DNA from: a virus
Lineage: Duplodnaviria; Heunggongvirae; Uroviricota; Caudoviricetes
IMG/VR virus record: IMGVR_UViG_2711768042_000002
Span: 1 to 32,094 of that record
Strand: one strand, 5' to 3'
Length of the DNA stretch: 32,094 nucleotides
The notes beneath the pieces are model-generated. The model searched no databases and was not told where the DNA came from. It saw nothing but the letters and a program-made list of their open reading frames with translations. The position numbers and the translations under genes were made by a program. This document shows, one piece after another, positions 2,178-19,435 of this stretch; position 1 is the first letter of the stretch, and each line of letters begins with the position of its first letter.

Positions 2178-4019
2178 TCACTGCTGTGTTGCCTCAGTAG
2201 CAAACAGCGGTCTGATGGCATTCGCAGCATTATTTAGCGCTCTTTCATAGGCTGGTGTTCCTGCTTTGGTGTTTGCCAAGCGTAAGAGAGCATTCCTTGC
2301 TGCTTTGGATTCATACAAGCGCATCATTGCACCGAAACCAGCCTCAAGCCCCATTGATACGCCAAGAGTCGCAGTTGCGCCAATCGTCCTTATCCTGTTG
2401 GCTTGCGATTGCCCCGTCTGAGTTACTACATTTGCGGTGTCTGACCTTGCTGTTTGCTGTAGAACTTCATGAAGAGCATCAAGTTCTTTCATGTGCTTTC
2501 CAGAAAAAATAGTGTTGTAAATTTCACCGCCTGACTGAGATTTCAGCTTATTAACTTCAGTGATGAACTTGGCTGGAGAGTCACCGGCCTTTTCCGCTAT
2601 TTTGCTGACGTAAGCTGCACGCATAGCATCTTTCCCTTTATCATCCAGTGCGCTCCAGATTCGTTTCACGTCAGATGGTTTTCTGCTTAATACAACGGTA
2701 TTTATAAGTTCAGGACTGGCTTCACTGCTTGCCTTGTTGAGTTTGTTAGCAATGTTTTTATTAAGCACCTTATTATAAACGTTTGCATAATCGGAATTTG
2801 CTTTAAGGTATTTTGCTGCGTCTGATGCACCGAGGTTTTTAGCAACTGCGTTACGAAGGTCTTTTGACATTGCATTCTCTACCATATTGGTAGCTGCTTT
2901 TGCCTGGTTGGGGAAGACCATAGCATCTCCCTGAACATTAGATCTAAATGCTGTTCTGTGCTGACGCAAGAGATCAAACGTAACATCCAAATCAGTTGCA
3001 GGGTTTGCTAATTCTTCACGTAGGTTACGCAAGGATGTAAGCAGGCTTTGATTGGCAGACGTCCCAAGCCGTTCCTGTCTTGCGATCGCTGTATTCAGAG
3101 CATTCATGGTATTTGTGGTATCAACTGCGGCATTACCCATTTTATTGGTGACGTCATTGATAACAGCGCCAGCGGCATCCTTCCGTCCCCTTAACGTGGT
3201 GGTCAGAGATTTCACCACATCATCCGGGTTGTACTCACCAAAACGGTCAAAATAATTACTTACCAACTTACTACGCGTTGCATATTGCTCCGCTCGCTTT
3301 GAGCCTGTCCCGAGCAAAGCCCCCTCGGCATCCTGAGTAAGACCGCGAGTGAAAGCATTTTTCGGCTGGATAACATCAGATGTCATAGGTGTCACGCCCA
3401 TCGATTCTGAGGTGGCAATTTTTTTCGCTACTTCTGGCGCGATATCGCCTTTTATAGCCGTTATTCCACGCCCTATTCCCTTTGCTGCTGCGGAAAGAAC
3501 ACCCTGAGCGGCAAGGTTAACTCCGGCGTTTATGGCTGCATTTTGCGCGAAATCGCCTTTCTGGTTTGCGGCTTCTGCCAGTGATCCTATAGCCATGCTT
3601 CCTGCCGTTCCAACTCCTGGAACTAAATACCCGCCAATTGTTTCTCCAGCTTGCGCATAAGGGTCTGTTGGTCGATCTACTGGACGATAGACATCGTCCA
3701 AAACCTTGGGGCCACCAAGCCCCTGGCTGATTGCATTAATCAGACTTGCGCCACCCTGCAATACGTCAAATGGTATGTTTACCAGACCACGACCAGCCTG
3801 CTCTGCAATTTGCCCTGCACTTTGACCACCTGTGAGCCAATCGCCAGCTTGTTGCATCAATGATGGTTCTTCACGTGCTGGTTCATTATTGGCCTGATTA
3901 ACTGTTTGTTGCTGAACAGCCTGACCAGCAAAATACTCATCAATGGCGGTGCCAATATCTTCCGTGCTCGTACCATCAGGGAAGGTAAATGTCTTACCGT
4001 TTGCAGTTACTTTCATCAT
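2178..4019 (-). CDS. 16: Ejection/injection protein gp16
   Basis: 613 aa, [32 protein letters not shown]... matches P22 gp16 N-terminus as recalled; position after gp20. Confidence 0.9.
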
Positions 4020-5488
4020 TCCACCGTAAATTGAATGCCTGATTTTGAGGTATATGATCCGGATTGACTCTGCTGCTGTTGGGTATTTGTCGGTTGTTGG
4101 CTATTGCTCTGTTGTTGACTATTTGCAGCACTTGAAACCACCAAAGCATCATAAACGCGACCAGACTGACCACGTAATGAGTTATATTGGCCCTGCATTT
4201 TTCGCATTTTTGTTTCAGTAGCAGCCTTGGAATCACCGGGCTGAGGCAGGTACATTTTGGAATACTCCTGCATCTCTGGCAGAGTAATTGCTGCACCTGT
4301 TTCTGGGCGCAAAATTGCATACAAGGCGTCTCTCGCATTTACCATATATTGCTGCTCCGCTGGTGATAGGCTTAAATTTGCAATAGTCCCATCACCAAGA
4401 GAGCGATTTATTAATGCAACTCGCTTAGGGTCAATGCTTTTACTAAGTTGATTCATTGAGTCCATTGAATCTTTTAATCGCAAAGCAAATCCTGCCGCCT
4501 TCTTGGAACCCTCATTAGCCTTATCTATGATGCTTTGCGCTTGTGGCAAACTAATTGGTTTAATGCCATCACCAGATATAGGTTGGTTTAGTTTTCCTGC
4601 TTCCTCGCTGCCATCGGTGTAATACTTAGTTACCGAGCCATCAGGATTGGTTTCAACCTTAAGTAATTTCTTAGCATTGGGATTAATTCCCGCCGCTGCC
4701 GCAAATGCCGCTGCACCATCTGGATCCGCCTTTAACATTTGCGCGTACTGATTGTAATTCTGCATTGCGGCTGTTGGTGCATATGCTGACGTTAACGCAT
4801 TTGCTCGGCTAATATCCTGCCCTCTCGCCTGAAGTGCTTCGCTGGCCTGATTGCTGCGGATTGTCTCTGCCAGTCTGCCTCGGTCAATCTCACGACCAGC
4901 CATCTTGTCCTGAACATTGAAGTAATCAATCGGACCAAGAGCAGCCATTCCAAGGTGATCAACAAACTCACCAAATCCTGAAGGATTCTGCTGATACATC
5001 TGAGCAACGTTATTAGGGTCAACACCGACGCGAGTCAGTTCCTTGGCGTTGTTTTGCAGCCATGATTGCATTGCTTCTGGAGACGAGGCCGCAAGGCGTG
5101 CGCCAGCCGCTAAGGTGCCGATAGAATTGCGCTGGTCTTCGTCTGCCCACTTCATACCAGACTGAATCTTCTCTAATTGACCAGGATATTTGGTCATCAG
5201 ATCTCGCACCTGCTGCCGATCACCTGACTGGATGGCTGCCGCATATTCTTTTTGGAATGCAGCATCCGCTTCCTGTTGCTTTGCGGCTTGATATGTTTGA
5301 GCGACACTACCAAGCCCCTGCAACGCCTGAAGGCCGATGTTATTGCGACCTGAGCGCTCCATTTCGTTGTTCTGGCGAATATATGCCAACGCCTCACTTA
5401 CATCACTTGCCTTTGGCGCATTTGAGTTTTGCCCACCGATACCAGCAAGAAAGCCGCCTGAGTTGATTCCTTGTTGCCAAGTAGCCAT
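4016..5488 (-). CDS. 20: Ejection/injection protein gp20
   Basis: 490 aa, Gln/Ala-rich; order 7-20-16 as in P22; start overlaps gp7 region, stop overlaps gp16 start. Confidence 0.85.
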
Positions 5489-5497
5489 ATTCCCACC

Positions 5498-6172
5498 TTA
5501 AAACAATGATCCAAGACCACCGATAATACCGCCACCAATAGCGCCAACAGCTGTACCTATTCCAGGTACCACAGAGCCAATCATCGCCCCTGATGCCGCA
5601 CCGCTCATGGCACCGCCCAAAGCTGATTGCAATCCTGATGGTCGGTTAGCATTCGCCGCAGATGCTGCCGCCTGCTGTTGATACAATTGGCTGACGTTGT
5701 TAGCGTAGTTCTGCCCGGCGTTTGCCTGACCTGTAAGAGCACCAAGGCCAATGTTTGCCAGATTGTTGTAGTTGTTCATCTGACCTGACAGCCAGTTTTG
5801 ACCGAGTGTAGGTGCGATTGCTGCTAACTGGTTTCCTGTTGCTGTAGAGCCTAATCCACCCGTTGCCTCTGCTGCTGCCAGACTCTGGTAACGCGCCTGA
5901 CCAGCAAGGTCTTTGTACTGCTGGGAGTTGTAATACTGGTTAAGCGCCTGACCTTGCCCCTGAAGAGAGGAAAGATTCTGCAACTCTGATACGTACTGTT
6001 GAGCGAGTGGCGTGAACGGTGCAAGGTTTTGCATGTTCGTTTGCCACATTTCACGCTGCAATTCGATACCCTTTTCAGTTGCGCGTGCCTGGGCTTTTGA
6101 ACCGCCATCACTGCCACCTTTGCAGTAAACAGCTTTGCTGAGGTGCTTATTGGCAATCTGGAAAATTAACAT
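5498..6172 (-). CDS. 7: Ejection/injection protein gp7
   Basis: 224 aa, C-terminal Gly/Ala-rich tail; position between gp14 and gp20. Confidence 0.8.
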   Translation of the reverse strand: MLIFQIANKHLSKAVYCKGGSDGGSKAQARATEKGIELQREMWQTNMQNLAPFTPLAQQYVSELQNLSSLQGQGQALNQYYNSQQYKDLAGQARYQSLAAAEATGGLGSTATGNQLAAIAPTLGQNWLSGQMNNYNNLANIGLGALTGQANAGQNYANNVSQLYQQQAAASAANANRPSGLQSALGGAMSGAASGAMIGSVVPGIGTAVGAIGGGIIGGLGSLF

Positions 6173-14134: not shown

Positions 14135-15550
14135 TCAACCTACACCACAAGGAATTGAGTAACTGGAATAGTCGGGTTGCGCAACCGACTCCGGGCAATG
14201 CATACACATCATCAACGCATCAGCCAGGTTAGGAGATGGAATACCGAGCTTCTGCTTCATTTCTACCTTAGTCATTAGCTCCAGCTTCCCGTTGTTATTG
14301 AATTTGCGCTGAATCTGCGTCAGTTCTGCAAACAGCTTCTCCAGTATCTTCTCGCCTATCGCTTCTTTGTCGAAACTCAGCATGTCGTCGGGGTCTGCAT
14401 ACTCACCGTGGACAACCGCCCGATATGTCAGATACAGCCTGTCAGCCAGCGCATAATAGAATTGCGCTCGCTTATTGCGGAACACATCGCCAATAGTGCG
14501 AACGTTGTCGCCCTGCACGACTTCATCAGCCCATGCTCCAGCCTGATAAGGCGCATCTTCATCGAATGGCGATTCGCTGCCCTTGAACATCGTGGCGGTT
14601 ATTTTCTTGCCGGAGAACGCTTCCGTTGTCTGTCTGCGTAGCCCGGCACCAACACCATCACCATCCCACAGGTAGTGGTCAGCGCCGTCTTCAATCGCCA
14701 GAGAAGTAGCCCAGTCAGCGCCCTCGTTGATGTCCATCAGCAGACCTTCGGCAATGCGCTTAACTACCGAACCGTGACGCGATGCATAACCTTTGGCATC
14801 CGGCCCTGTATCTGATGGGTCATGCGCAGAGACAACAGCGCCTTTCGCTTTCCATCCGAGTTTCTTGTGCGCATCGGTTGCGGCTTCAAGCCATTCACGT
14901 TTGATGATTGCCATATCACTTGCGCTTACTGGCTCACCAAGCCAGATGTGACGATACAGTGTCGGATTTCTGCGTTTGCACTCTTCCATCTCCAGACGGA
15001 GGACTTCAGGAAAGTGCGGGTTGTCGGTGTAGTTCACCGTCAGCAGGCAAATGTCATCGGGAGGATTTACGACGAATCGCTGATAGGTATCGTCGAGGAT
15101 GTTTTTCGGGTTGAAGCTCACCCATATTTCGGAAAATGGCTTGCGGATGGTTGGAATCAGGATATCCCATGATTCCTTCGTTACCGCTTCCGCTTCTTCC
15201 ACCCAGCAGATATCAATGCCTTCGAGCGATTTAATCTTCGTCGGGTTGTTTTTGATGCCGTAGAACATGAATTCAGCGTTCGTTCCGAGATGACGAATCA
15301 TTGAACGCTGAATTTCAAACTCAGCCGAATACCCTTCCCGCTCGATGGTGTCTTCAAGCAACCGGATTACCGAATCGCTGATACTGTTTTGCAGTTCACG
15401 AGCGCAAAGAATACGCACAGGCTGCCGACGTGCCGCCTCAACAAGCAGCCTCGCAATTGCCCATGATTTACCGCTACCTCGACCGCCTTTGGCGACTTTG
15501 TAGCGATGAGCCTCAATGAACGGTTCAAAGATAGGATTAATCGAGGTCAT
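14135..15550 (-). CDS. 2: Terminase large subunit
   Basis: 471 aa; Walker A KGGRGSGKSW near N-terminus; nuclease-domain acidic residues; Sf6-type TerL as recalled. Confidence 0.9.
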   Translation of the reverse strand: MTSINPIFEPFIEAHRYKVAKGGRGSGKSWAIARLLVEAARRQPVRILCARELQNSISDSVIRLLEDTIEREGYSAEFEIQRSMIRHLGTNAEFMFYGIKNNPTKIKSLEGIDICWVEEAEAVTKESWDILIPTIRKPFSEIWVSFNPKNILDDTYQRFVVNPPDDICLLTVNYTDNPHFPEVLRLEMEECKRRNPTLYRHIWLGEPVSASDMAIIKREWLEAATDAHKKLGWKAKGAVVSAHDPSDTGPDAKGYASRHGSVVKRIAEGLLMDINEGADWATSLAIEDGADHYLWDGDGVGAGLRRQTTEAFSGKKITATMFKGSESPFDEDAPYQAGAWADEVVQGDNVRTIGDVFRNKRAQFYYALADRLYLTYRAVVHGEYADPDDMLSFDKEAIGEKILEKLFAELTQIQRKFNNNGKLELMTKVEMKQKLGIPSPNLADALMMCMHCPESVAQPDYSSYSIPCGVG

Positions 15551-15987
15551 TTTCCGAATAGAGTGCTCATCGGTGATGTTTCAATCTGAATTGCGCCGCC
15601 GTCTTTGCCTGTTAGTTCGTGATCAACCTTGTCGCGCCATTTATCCTTCTGTCGATTCTTAAGCCAGAAGATGGCAGCGGTTGTATCAGGCGGGTAATAC
15701 TTCTCAAGCGGAGTTTCGACAATTCTGTTTTCAATAACACGAATATCGATGTCTGGAGCCACGAAGCCCATAGCGCGTTGATAAAGACGATCACTAACTT
15801 CTGCATCAGCGACGGCCTTACCCTTTTTTATGGACTCCGAAAACTTAGGATAATCAAGCTTCCACTTGTTAATAGTTGACTCACTGACTTCAAAGAAATC
15901 AGCAAGTTCTGCATCGGTGTAGCCCAGCAAGCACAGTTTGCGTGCCTGTTCGGCATACGCCTCTTGATACTTTGTTGGGCGCGCCAT
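15547..15987 (-). CDS. 3: Terminase small subunit
   Basis: 146 aa directly upstream of and overlapping TerL; HTH-like N-terminus; C-terminus ...GKDGGAIQIETSPMSTLFGK. Confidence 0.8.
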   Translation of the reverse strand: MARPTKYQEAYAEQARKLCLLGYTDAELADFFEVSESTINKWKLDYPKFSESIKKGKAVADAEVSDRLYQRAMGFVAPDIDIRVIENRIVETPLEKYYPPDTTAAIFWLKNRQKDKWRDKVDHELTGKDGGAIQIETSPMSTLFGK

Positions 15988-15989
15988 GT

Positions 15990-16232
15990 TTATGCTCCGG
16001 TAGTGAACAGGTCTAACGCTTCCTTCGATTTACGCACCGCTTCGATAGTGCGGGTCGTGATATCTGAATTAGCGCCGCCTGACTGGAAGTGAATTTTGAA
16101 TAGCTCAAGCTTCAGTTCGTCAGTGCCAATGAACTGAAATGCTTCTTCTGCGGCTGCGTTCTGGTTCATGACCAGCTTGTAAATCTCTAACTGGAATTTC
16201 TGTTCTTCAGTCATGGGAATAATCTCTGCCAT
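15990..16232 (-). CDS. Hypothetical 80-aa protein upstream of terminase (P22 orf80-like position)
   Basis: Track ORF, 80 aa, tightly packed against TerS start. Confidence 0.55.
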   Translation of the reverse strand: MAEIIPMTEEQKFQLEIYKLVMNQNAAAEEAFQFIGTDELKLELFKIHFQSGGANSDITTRTIEAVRKSKEALDLFTTGA

Positions 16233-16535
16233 TGTTGGCTCCGTTTATCCGTTAAAAGGGATATCAGTTAAGTTATCCCGTGTAGGGTATAAGCCATTGT
16301 CGAGACCACTCATTGAATGGCCTCTGCAATAACCGATATCTTTCCATCAGTCCGCCACCACAAAGAATCTTTTTTGCCATAAGGCAGGAGGTTCATCTTT
16401 CAGTGGCTGCCAGTGTTATTTCCCCACTTACTGGCTTGGGTTGTATCGCTGTACTGCCGTTAATTAGTGACCAGAAATTAACTCCGGTTTCATTATCAAG
16501 CCCACCCGTAGATAGGCTTTGTAATGCCTACATGG

Positions 16536-17015
16536 TTAAATGATTTGCCAGTCTTCAGCCATCAGGTCGCCAATGGATGGAACCCATGTAGCAAGGCGGT
16601 TCTGTGAGTTTTTCAATACAAGCGTGTCATTGAAAGTTGGCTCGCCAACATATTCGCCAAAGCCATAACCCAACGCAGACGCTAATTTTTCCCCTTTCAC
16701 GAGATAAACAAACTGGTCTTTCCCATTCCATCCTGCCCGCTGCAAACTTTTGCCCTGTTTTAACGCTTCCATGGCAAGGCCGAAACTTAACCCTGATACC
16801 GGACGATAAGCCTTTTCGAATACTTCTTTTGGACTCCAGCTAACGTAGCCATCAAAGCGATCGGTGTTAGGTTTTCCGCCATCCAGATATTCAACCAGAT
16901 AGCCTTCGTCCTCGCCGTTTTCTCCGGCAGGAAGCTGCCAGCCACGAAAATCGTTATATGCCTGTCTCGTCATCGGAAAGGCGTTAATCAGTTTTACGCC
17001 AATATGCTGGGTCAT
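16536..17015 (-). CDS. Hypothetical protein with DUF2829-like C-terminal domain
   Basis: ATG start MTQHIGVKL... inside track ORF 16536..17138 (track N-terminal extension from TTG looks non-coding). C-terminal half FGLAMEALKQGKSLQRAGWNGKDQFVYLV...WVPSIGDLMAEDWQII resembles the DUF2829 signature as I recall it. Confidence 0.55.
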   Translation of the reverse strand: MTQHIGVKLINAFPMTRQAYNDFRGWQLPAGENGEDEGYLVEYLDGGKPNTDRFDGYVSWSPKEVFEKAYRPVSGLSFGLAMEALKQGKSLQRAGWNGKDQFVYLVKGEKLASALGYGFGEYVGEPTFNDTLVLKNSQNRLATWVPSIGDLMAEDWQII

Positions 17016-17237
17016 AAAATTACCTATGGAGTTGGGAATAAAAAACCCCGCGAATGCGAGGCTAAATCCTGGTATTTGTAATGAACTGGCTCTTATCTCA
17101 ACGCAGCCCCTTACCGCGCGCCAGATGCTCAATATCAAGCATCAACAATGAGATATTTAATCTGGATTCACTCCAGAAGTGATCACCACCCTGTCTACAG
17201 AGCCAGATGTGAAGGATGATGAGTAAAATTATCGCTA

Positions 17238-17675
17238 TCATCGAAGGCATTGCGTCCTGATGTATTCCTGCAGGTAGTTAACCTGCGCGGTTATCCTGTC
17301 TATTCCACTTCGGAGACGGTAATAATTGAGTTCAGCATCTGCTGTAAGTCTTGGGCTTTCTCCATCGCCCATGCTGCTGGCTCCGGTCGTTGACTTTGCA
17401 CAGGTGGCGGCGACTTGCAGGCGCTTACGACCAGCAGAAATATCAGCACGGAGACTTTCGATAGTCGCGTTAGCATCAGCAAGCTCCTTTGTGTATCTGG
17501 CATCGAGTTCTGCTACATCACGTTGACGATTCTGCATGTCAGCGATAATGGATGTGGATTTATCTCGCTGCTCTTTGTAGGCGATGGCGTTATCACGGTA
17601 ATGATTAACAGCCCATGACAGGCAGACGATGATGCAGATAATCAGAGCGGAGATAATCGCGGTTACTCTGCTCAT
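17238..17675 (-). CDS. Rz: i-spanin Rz
   Basis: 145 aa, N-terminal TM helix then coiled coil; immediately downstream of endolysin. Confidence 0.85.
17300..17476 (-). CDS. Rz1: o-spanin Rz1 (embedded in Rz, +1 frame)
   Basis: [20 protein letters not shown] lipoprotein signal with lipobox, then Pro-rich [13 protein letters not shown]; inside track ORF 17300..17503. Confidence 0.65.
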
Positions 17676-18148
17676 ACCTCAATCTCTCTGACCGTTCCGC
17701 CAGCCTCTTTGAATTTTGCAATCAGGCTGTCAGCCTTATGCTCGAACTGACCATAACCAGCGCCCGGCAGTGAAGCCCAGATATTGCTGCAACGATCGAT
17801 AGCCTGACGGATATCACCGCGATCAATCATCGGTAAAGCGCCACGCTCTTTAATCTGCTGCAATGCCACAGCGTCTTGGCTTTTCGGAGAAAAATCTTTC
17901 AGGCCAAGCTGTTTACGGTAAGCATCCCACCAACGGGAAAGAAGCTGGTAACGTCCTGCGGCTGTTGATTTGAGTTTGGGGTTTAGCGTGACAAGTTTGC
18001 GAGGGTGATCGGAGTAATCAGTGAATAGCTCTCCGCCAACAATGACGTCATAACCATGATTTCTGGTTTTCTGACGTCCGTTATCAGTTCCCTCTGACCA
18101 CGCCAGCATATCGAGGAACGCCTTACGTTGATTATTGATTTCCACCAT
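17672..18148 (-). CDS. R: Endolysin, lambda R-type lytic transglycosylase
   Basis: 158 aa, [39 protein letters not shown]... essentially lambda R as recalled. Confidence 0.9.
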
Positions 18149-18455
18149 CTTCTACTCCGGCTTTTTTAGCAGCGAAGCGTTTGATAAGCGAACCAATCGA
18201 GTCAGTGCCGATGTAGCCGATGAACACGCTCGTTATATAAGCGAGATTGCTACTTAGTCCGGCGAAGTCGAGAAGGTCACGAATGAACCAGGCGATAATG
18301 GCGCACATCGTTGCGTCGATTACTGTTTTTGTAAACGCACCGCCATTATATCTGCCGCGAAGGTACGCCATTGCAAACGCAAGGATTGCCCCGATGCCTT
18401 GTTCCTTTGCCGCGAGAATGGCGGCTAACAGGTCATGTTTTTCTGGCATCTTCAT
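18132..18455 (-). CDS. S: Holin, lambda S-type with dual-start motif
   Basis: 107 aa, [39 protein letters not shown]... matches lambda S; Met1-Lys2-Met3 dual start; GGGGG-containing leader upstream. Confidence 0.9.
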
Positions 18456-18697: not shown

Positions 18698-18773
18698 TGG
18701 TGCTGGTTAACGGACTTGAACCGCTACCCATTCGCTTACAAGGCGACCGCTCTACCATTGGAGCTAAACCAGC
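18698..18773 (-). tRNA. tRNA-Thr (anticodon UGU)
   Basis: Hand-folded cloverleaf: 7-bp perfect acceptor stem GCTGGTT/AACCAGC, D-stem GCTC/GAGC, anticodon loop CTTGTAA, T-arm AGCGG-TTCAAGT-CCGTT, 5-nt variable loop, encoded CCA; one mismatch in anticodon stem. Confidence 0.75.
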
Positions 18774-18778
18774 ATGTT

Positions 18779-18853
18779 TGGTGGGACAGCGTGGACTCGA
18801 ACCACGATAAGAAGGTTAACAGCCTTCCGCAATGACCTTTATACGACTGACCC
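18779..18853 (-). tRNA. tRNA-Asn(GUU)-like, possibly degenerate
   Basis: Anticodon arm GAAGG-CTGTTAA-CCTTC, T-arm CGTGG-TTCGAGT-CCACG and CCA end are canonical; acceptor and D stems each have one mismatch. Confidence 0.45.
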
Positions 18854-18916: not shown

Positions 18917-19435
18917 CTAAATGGCTAATTGCATGTCAAGGCTTTTAACGGCAACATGCTTAACTTTCTCAACACGTTTACGCATTTTGAAAGCATTTTG
19001 CATTGGTTGGTACAAAACAAATAACGACGCTTTCAGGATGTCGTCAATTTCATTTCTACAGGTTGCCAGTGAAGGTTTTCTCCATCCCTCACCACCACGC
19101 CCACACATCTTGCGTGGCTTTGCAGTCGCGTGATAGTAGGATGCAATTGCTCGCTTAGATGAACCATGAGCGTAGTAGCTGAGGAGGATGCCAAAGGCTT
19201 TCTTGTCAATGTACATGACGGAATCGACGACCTGAGAAATCAACATTCCATCATCATCATTGCACATTGGCCTTGTCATAACTCTTCCCGGCTCTACGCT
19301 CTCCATGAACTTCGCTATTACGCTGCTCATGCGCTTTTCCAGACGACCTGAATAAACCCATGCGCCCCACAGTTCAAGCCAGCCATTCAGCCACTCGTGC
19401 TGTTCTTTGGTGAGGTTTAGTTCTCTTATGCCCAC
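18917..19435 (-). CDS. Q: Late antiterminator Q-like protein (non-lambda type)
   Basis: 172-aa ORF in Q position between nin region and lysis genes; WLELWGAWV motif reminiscent of 82/21-type Q; not lambda Q. Confidence 0.6.

Follow-up and report, generated by a model that had tools for sequence, protein, structure and literature searches.

A Tad2-family protein with a conserved N-terminal domain, a predicted Thoeris signal sponge, in the late operon of a P22-like coliphage

The gene directly following the lysis genes in the window (the whole stretch of DNA analyzed, 32,094 nucleotides) encodes, as judged from its sequence, a clear member of the Tad2 family, in which the C-terminal 85 residues form a Tad2-family sponge domain and aa 1-74 form a separate, highly conserved small α/β domain (referred to as the N-domain). 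This 159-aa protein is probably a phage anti-defense protein: a Tad2-family sponge for the Thoeris signal, with the N-domain as a possible accessory. The analysis established which domains it contains and how they fold, which residues are conserved, where translation starts, and where the gene lies. The gene and its upstream elements were as follows.

16536..17015, minus strand: coding sequence of the two-domain protein (N-domain plus Tad2 domain), 159 aa and stop; from the ORF list, with the ATG at 17015 as the start
16539..16793, minus strand: Tad2 (PF11195/DUF2829) sponge domain, aa 75-159
16794..17015, minus strand: conserved N-domain, aa 1-74, without a Pfam family; motifs EGYLVEY.DGG..N and GY.SWSP..F
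17022..17025, minus strand: Shine-Dalgarno-like AGGT, 6 nt 5' of the ATG; read from the sequence
17034..17063, minus strand: intrinsic terminator between the lysis module and the sponge gene, with a hairpin at 17063..17044 followed by a T-run; from the terminator scan and RNA fold
17098..17250, minus strand: conserved 50-aa ORF after Rz, similar to Sf6 gene 65, marking where the conserved lysis module stops; from the ORF list and annotations

The initial annotation had reported a 200-aa ORF from a TTG codon (16536..17138, minus strand), and this frame was present, its translation containing FGLAMEALKQGKSLQRAGWNGKDQFVYLV ... WVPSIGDLMAEDWQII; the choice that had been left between the TTG and an ATG was settled in favor of the latter. 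The true start is the ATG at 17015, and this assignment followed from the starts of the homologues, the annotations, the AGGT 6 nt upstream, and the overlap of the extended frame with the terminator and the 50-aa ORF. The E. coli 55989 homologue (WP_000191869.1, "DUF2829 domain-containing protein") was called from ATG with 159 aa by PGAP/RefSeq, and phage annotations also put the start of the homologue at the ATG equivalent to 17015. Nearly all homologue N-termini read MTQHIG or MK.YIG, and almost all of the 47 aligned sequences started at the corresponding Met. The match to phrog_872 spanned the full 159-aa protein (E=1.9e-69), and the nearest protein cluster, 99% identical, was named "DUF2829 domain-containing protein [Escherichia coli]". 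The start at TTG 17138 was rejected: the frame crosses the terminator and overlaps the 3' end of the conserved 50-aa ORF, and homologues begin at the ATG. In the terminator, an 8-bp stem (AGCCUCGC/GCGGGGUU) with five G-C pairs and the loop AUUC is followed by the U-run UUUUUUAUU, and RNA folding also predicted the hairpin at 17063..17044; the epsilon34 annotation has a Rho-independent terminator at the corresponding position, and that of Ayreon a terminator. Annotations of E. coli 55989, Kapi1, Huey, epsilon34, and Bas106 include the 50-aa ORF after Rz, which a Pfam scan assigned to no family.

The resemblance to DUF2829/Tad2 that had been proposed from the letters was borne out by all the sequence and fold tests applied, at a level well above chance. 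PF11195, the former DUF2829, whose present Pfam name is "Thoeris anti-defense 2-like domain", matched the 159-aa form with 78.3 bits (cut-off 25; E=6.4e-22) over aa 77-159 and positions 2-73 of the 73-position profile. Among PDB sequences, phmmer aligned aa 75-159 with SPO1 Tad2 (Gp34.65; 8sme/8wje; E=3e-26), roughly half of the residues being identical, followed by ModTad2 (9eib; E=1.6e-18) and another Tad2 (~1e-18); SptTad2 and HgmTad2/AcrIIA7 matched more weakly. The AlphaFold2 model of the full-length monomer (48 homologues; pLDDT 89) had the published Tad2 topology: an N-terminal helix, a five-stranded antiparallel sheet, and short helices in the β2-β3 and β4-β5 loops. The Tad2 half carries a net charge of -1. 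No family other than PF11195 was detected when the whole protein was scanned against Pfam at E<=1, including Sequestin (PF21825), Acb4 (PF13876), and Acb2/Tad1, and no PADLOC defense model matched.

In SPO1 Tad2, 3'cADPR is contacted by W25, W73, N26, and D79 from both protomers, while T78 provides one hydrogen bond to the adenine, I63 and T65 make non-polar contacts, and waters are held by N26, D67, H71, W73, S76, and D79 (bioRxiv 2023.05.01.538930). Five core residues are conserved in the query (W25=W96, N26=N97, W73=W144, S76=S147, and D79=D150), each being kept in 114-120 of the 120 family sequences counted. The five residues on the adenine side or holding water differ: I63=L134, T65=N136, D67=Q138, H71=A142, and T78=G149, so that a ligand other than 3'cADPR is conceivable. 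On the other hand, adenine-side positions vary among functional Tad2 proteins, falling into a few discrete pocket types, of which T/D/T (SPO1) is the commonest and the N/Q/G type of the query accounts for ~14%. The adenine-side variant of the query (L134, N136, Q138, I148, and G149) is that of Tad2_68 (...LKNAQGKVVPWTPSIGD...), the sole tested protein of the N/Q/G type in Table S2 of Hadary et al. 2025, which inhibited type I Thoeris; since the overall identity between Tad2_68 and the query domain is 36%, this argument is suggestive rather than a proof. The adenine-side differences thus concern specificity, not family membership. The β2-β3 segment of the query, GYGFGEYVGEPTF, is of the short SPO1 type. 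A long β2-β3 insertion is required for cyclic-dinucleotide binding by HgmTad2 and SptTad2, and SPO1 Tad2 bound none of the cyclic oligonucleotides tried (Li et al.); CBASS signals are therefore unlikely ligands. Taken together, the profile, fold, and core pocket residues support the candidate signal-sponge anti-defense function put forward in the initial annotation; of the two systems it had suggested, Thoeris fits, while CBASS is the weaker part for the reasons just given. The protein is predicted to be a sponge for TIR-derived ADPR signals, probably 3'cADPR and possibly His-ADPR.

Among characterized proteins, SPO1 Tad2 (8SME/8SMF/8SMG, 8WJE) shares with the query a full domain of 85-89 aa, the insertion motif G(F/Y)GFGEY..EP.F, and the five core residues, but is a single-domain protein of 89 aa from a virulent Bacillus phage, to which the query adds the 74-aa N-domain. 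Tad2_68, from IMG/VR metagenomic data (Hadary et al. 2025), has the same pocket (W-N-L-N-Q-...-W-S-I-G-D), although it consists of 87 aa without an N-domain and has another β2-β3 segment. ModTad2/MoTad2 (9EIB), also single-domain, differs from the query in keeping T65 and D67 and in having S at position 78; it binds His-ADPR and cUMP/cCMP, with no inhibition of type I Thoeris. HgmTad2 (8KBI-8KBM, 9KZR) differs in the long insertion that binds cGG and cGAMP, and the P. dorei form of AcrIIA7 in a helical head domain with reported tracrRNA binding; sequence similarity of these two to the query is limited to the first ~38 domain residues. Kapi1_043 and Huey CDS0064 have the two-domain architecture, the same locus, and a near-identical N-domain, whereas their Tad2 halves diverge from ~aa 99, with long β2-β3 insertions and an SQTD pocket. 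In phage N4, "gp49" (GenBank EF056009) also combines the N-domain with Tad2 (160 aa, 49% identical) and adjoins the Acb4 gene "gp48".

The N-terminal part had been described as an ~85-aa extension; the extension exists and its length was close (74-76 aa), but it is a separate conserved domain. In AlphaFold2, the isolated N-domain was modeled with a pLDDT of 95.5 and the order β-β-α-β-β-α; this monomer model contains five strands including β1 at aa 2-5, and in the full-length monomer model the first 10 residues have a pLDDT of 69 and no strand. The N-domain is more conserved than the Tad2 half (mean pairwise identity of 71% vs 53%, and higher in 87% of pairs), with K8, Y20, N21, W26, P29, G38, LVEY 40-43, DGG 45-47, N50, GY 56-57, and SWSP 59-62 being invariant or nearly so, and has a net charge of -3. 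No match to Pfam was found even at E<=10, and a profile search of PDB sequences (in the copy searched) gave no relative. Against 1.84 billion representative proteins, the N-domain profile hit at least 2,788 clusters (50% identity; E<=0.001), and the domain was present in 137 INPHARED records. Its carriers include phages of Proteobacteria and Firmicutes as well as crAss-like phages. It is often a stand-alone ORF of ~73 aa, such as the 78-aa ORF of Erwinia phage phiEaP8 adjoining the virion RNA polymerase gene.

Several known families were considered for the N-domain, and most were rejected. Phage_gp49_66 is not the identity of the N-domain, which has no Pfam match; PF13876 corresponds to Acb4, a separate neighboring gene. 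PDB 6E3C and PF21825, both filtered by Hadary et al., are the Dec protein of phage L and Sequestin, respectively. Lockin has been described as an elongated β-rich hexamer absent from INPHARED phages, and was rejected on the basis of this description and of the distribution of the N-domain across INPHARED. An identity with one of Tad3-Tad8 is made less likely by two indirect arguments: the absence of a PDB match, and the wording of the RyR Tad authors, who place Tad3 in the same hotspot yet call the N-domain a "fold with unknown function" (bioRxiv 2026.06.04.730250).

RyR Tad is gp68 of Pectobacterium phage vB_PatP_CB1, described in a preprint of June 2026 (bioRxiv 2026.06.04.730250). The N-domain profile matched gp68 over residues 5-69 with 32.8 bits, as a whole-domain match; the motifs EGYLV.Y and Y.SWSP..VF are common to both, and a BFVD search paired the N-domain model with an RyR-domain protein of Yersinia phage TG1. 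These results indicated that aa 1-74 of the query and the N-domain of RyR Tad belong to the same domain family. Both proteins consist of this domain followed by a gcADPR sponge domain, which in RyR Tad is an all-helical RyR repeat (PF02026), unlike the Tad2 fold; the RyR Tad N-domain is without the DGG..N loop, and RyR Tad forms dimers, in contrast to the tetramers of Tad2 proteins. In the gp68 crystal, the N-domain dimerizes by a swap of strand β1, which completes a five-stranded sheet. RyR Tad does not need this domain to counteract type I Thoeris, and gp68_N alone (aa 1-86) showed no apparent effect on that system (bioRxiv 2026.06.04.730250).

The partners of the N-domain were surveyed by a Pfam scan of the top 144 representatives of the family. 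Tad2 was found in 47/144, Sequestin (PF21825) in 39/144, Acb4 (PF13876) in 17/144, and an Acb2/Tad1 hairpin, WDGH, and AP2 plus HNH in 1/144 each; the rest had no recognizable partner. The N-domain may stand at the N-terminus, internally, or at the C-terminus (orders N-Seq-Acb4, Acb4-N-Seq, N-Seq-Tad2, and Tad2-N), and is also joined to the RyR domain, itself a sponge. Acb4 is a 3'3'-cGAMP sponge (PMC11722364), and Sequestin, a 3'cADPR sponge, was discovered through its frequent fusion to Tad2 or Acb4 (Tal et al., bioRxiv 2025.07.12.664507). That query ran through Pfam, in which the N-domain has no family. Table S2 of Hadary et al. lists 18 tested Tad2 proteins, and neither the SWSP motif nor the N-domain occurs in any of them.

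The window belongs to a P22-like coliphage or prophage of the Lederbergvirus type, covers its late and early region, and is 95-97% identical in mosaic blocks to vB_EcoP-720R6, Kapi1, CUS-3, and Huey. The genes around the sponge gene were assigned as follows, with holin, endolysin, and Rz taken from the ORF list and near-identical annotated loci.

19435..18917, minus strand: Q antiterminator
18853..18698, minus strand: tRNA-Asn and tRNA-Thr
18455..18132, minus strand: holin
18148..17672, minus strand: endolysin
17675..17238, minus strand: Rz with embedded Rz1
16535..16233, minus strand: non-coding gap of ~300 bp, 3' of the sponge gene
16232..15990, minus strand: DUF2560 gene
15987..15547, minus strand: small terminase
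15550..14135, minus strand: large terminase

The location beside the lysis cassette, as reported earlier, was thus accurate: the gene comes directly after holin, endolysin, and Rz. In blastn against the E. coli 55989 locus, window positions 17300..16335 corresponded to 3839-4802 and 16333..15983 to 5216-5569 of that locus; in the 55989 prophage an Acb4 gene (PF13876, E=1.8e-34) follows, on a 413-bp segment absent from the window, and Huey also has an Acb4 gene after its Tad2-type gene. A stretch of 100 nt including the terminator is common to many lambdoid and P22-like phages, and the similarity ends ~17 nt before the ATG. Other phages hold different genes in this slot: HK620 has KilA-N and hkbL, epsilon34 has a T5orf172/MUG113 protein, and both CUS-3 and Bas106 have Rha. 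Kapi1, Huey, and IME10 match the window at 94-97% DNA identity across the N-domain and the first ~25 Tad2 residues; close to the conserved GWNGK motif this match breaks off, and the remainder of their Tad2 halves is of another kind, with long insertions and the SQTD pocket. Phage HZ41 carries the full-length allele, as do 37 of the 5,426 complete E. coli genomes. No GC anomaly marking a foreign cassette was detected at the locus.

A dedicated promoter for the sponge gene appears unlikely: a simple sigma-70-like scan of the minus strand over 15900-17800 found none, only poor hexamers were seen by eye in 17070-17180, and the end of the T-run lies 18 nt from the ATG. In lambdoid late transcription, Q-antiterminated polymerase reads through terminators, and the epsilon34 annotation contains PR', qut, and a terminator at the equivalent site; from this, together with the lack of a promoter in the scan, we infer that the gene is expressed by Q-antiterminated read-through of the late operon. 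Anti-defense genes are more often early, and late-operon expression is unusual for them. In lysogen cultures, no Kapi1 transcript was reported to be more abundant than that of Kapi1_043, and those of scaffold, capsid, and CI were also high (PMC12922286); since head-gene transcripts were among them, spontaneous induction could explain this signal.

The oligomeric state, ligand, and phenotype of the protein may be inferred from its characterized relatives. By analogy with SPO1 Tad2, ModTad2, and HgmTad2, it would form a homotetramer with two pockets at protomer interfaces. These pockets would sequester an ADP-ribose-derived signal produced by Thoeris TIR (ThsB) proteins, most likely 3'cADPR (1''-3' gcADPR) and perhaps also His-ADPR, the Thoeris effector would remain off, and the phage could finish its cycle. 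The N-domain, read from the RyR Tad homologue, may be an oligomerizing or accessory module of sponge proteins. The gene occupies a variable slot for cargo in the late operon controlled by Q, and its product would be synthesized along with those of the lysis and head genes. About a quarter of the sponge homologues assayed in published screens had no activity.

It is possible, if rather doubtful, that two inhibitors are combined in one protein, with the N-domain acting as an autonomous anti-defense module, either a sponge for another signal or a binder of a defense protein. The domain is strung together with sponge domains in any order, as in the known Tad2-Acb4, Tad2-Sequestin, and Acb4-Sequestin fusions, and those counted above (Tad2, Sequestin, Acb4, and the Acb2/Tad1 hairpin), together with RyR, are all of this kind; sponge fusion was the criterion that yielded Sequestin, in a Pfam-based query for which the N-domain had no family. 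Its frequent occurrence as a stand-alone ORF and its conservation above that of the Tad2 half point in the same direction. However, gp68_N, the only homologue assayed so far, showed no apparent effect on type I Thoeris and has a role in dimerization in the crystal, and the negative charge of the N-domain differs from the positively charged pockets of published sponges. This reading is compatible with the Tad2 half being the sponge and does not exclude it. A Tad2-fold sponge for another ligand, namely, His-ADPR only, N7-cADPR, or a cyclic mono- or dinucleotide at the second (A-C) interface, has a lower probability but is a realistic alternative. Specificities do vary in the family, with its discrete pocket types: in addition to ModTad2 (His-ADPR and cUMP/cCMP) and HgmTad2 (cGG and cGAMP), Tad2_71 is active against types I, II, and IV; the query also shares A142/T143 with ModTad2 and has no counterpart of T78, through which SPO1 Tad2 forms a hydrogen bond with adenine. 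Nevertheless, the closest characterized relative by sequence is SPO1 Tad2, a 3'cADPR binder, Tad2_68 with the same pocket type inhibited type I, and the dinucleotide binding of HgmTad2 and SptTad2 needs a long insertion in place of the short segment of the query.

It is very improbable that the gene is cargo outside anti-defense, such as a regulator or lysogenic-conversion factor merely sharing the DUF2829 fold. The Rha, KilA-N, and T5orf172 genes in the same slot of other P22-like phages, a weak match to phrog_643 "transcriptional regulator" (E=4e-5), and the high expression of Kapi1_043 in lysogen cultures would agree with such a role, but the core ligand-contacting residues are almost invariant across the family, all characterized members of the Tad2 fold are sponges, the recognizable partners of the N-domain are sponges almost without exception, and an Acb4 gene adjoins in E. 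coli 55989, Huey, and N4. Least probable of all is an AcrIIA7-type anti-CRISPR protein that binds tracrRNA. Head-less AcrIIA7 was reported in 2026 to bind tracrRNA in vitro (PMC13133391), and the Huey CDS0064 homologue is labeled "anti-CRISPR protein", but the AcrIIA7 match is confined to aa 76-113 and its head consists of two helices, whereas the N-domain of the query is β-rich. The groove of AcrIIA7 is positively charged, unlike the Tad2 half of the query with its net charge of -1. E. coli carries type I CRISPR-Cas and is not known to carry type II, so that the tracrRNA target would be absent in the host. Neither HgmTad2 nor other Tad2 proteins inhibited Cas9 (Li et al.). The "anti-CRISPR" label on the Huey genes derives from AcrIIA7.

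As a homologue of Tad2, the predicted Thoeris sponge adds little: the family has thousands of members, the domain is named in Pfam, and the Tad2-like proposal was already in print for the sibling Kapi1_043 (PMC12922286). The combination of N-domain and Tad2 is common in databases, and such a gene appears ordinary for a temperate phage. The interchangeable Tad2 cassettes behind a constant N-domain provide a natural series for the swapping of sponge specificity by recombination. In temperate P22-like coliphages, an Acb4 gene sometimes adjoins these cassettes.

The sole lead with some novelty is the N-domain, which has so far appeared only in passing in the literature, as the "fold with unknown function" of RyR Tad, and here proved to be a large family. 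Because its recognizable partners are almost all sponges, as was the case for Sequestin, it offers an inexpensive and clearly delimited test case. If the N-domain were itself an inhibitor, the protein would disarm two things at once, and the stand-alone copies, such as the 78-aa ORF of phiEaP8, would represent a new and widespread family of inhibitors.

Among other P22-like phages, unrelated cargo was found in the slot just after the terminator that follows Rz (window 17033-17138; loci L009-L012): HK620 has KilA-N and hkbL there, epsilon34 a T5orf172/MUG113 protein, and both CUS-3 and Bas106 have Rha. This slot is a recombination hotspot, with the terminator as one border and the DUF2560 gene as the other. 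A 413-bp segment with the gene of an Acb4 sponge (PF13876, 'Gp49 family') was present in the prophage of E. coli 55989 and cleanly missing from the window; the Tad2-type gene and Acb4 therefore act like separate cassettes of one slot. The site of the missing segment and the features around the lysis genes were as follows:

~16334, inside the gap 16233-16535: site of the missing Acb4 segment, by comparison with the E. coli 55989 prophage
17098-17250, minus strand: conserved 50-aa ORF, similar to Sf6 gene 65, after Rz
18698-18853, minus strand: a tRNA pair, tRNA-Thr(tgt) with tRNA-Asn(gtt), flanked by the Q gene and the holin

No Pfam family was found for the 50-aa ORF; a signal peptide is predicted according to the annotation of the Kapi1 record. 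The same tRNA pair was also present in Kapi1 and Bas106.

In P0311 (354 aa), a protein from the profile search with the N-domain, this domain (residues 1-73) and the Tad2 domain (264-353) were separated by HNH_3 and AP2 domains. Either an insertion of homing-endonuclease type has split the two domains, or the gene call is a fusion.

In phage Huey (L002), the N-domain-Tad2 gene and the Acb4-family gene beside it (2623-3123 and 3358-3738) were both labelled 'anti-CRISPR protein'. This label appears to have been passed on from entries such as AcrIIA7, and in a coliphage it probably misleads. In phage N4 (EF056009; 2109-2962), the protein consisting of the N-domain and Tad2 is 'gp49' in GenBank, and the PF13876 protein is 'gp48', yet the Pfam name of PF13876 is 'N4 Gp49'. 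This offset in numbering between GenBank and Pfam could cause a mix-up over which N4 protein is Acb4.
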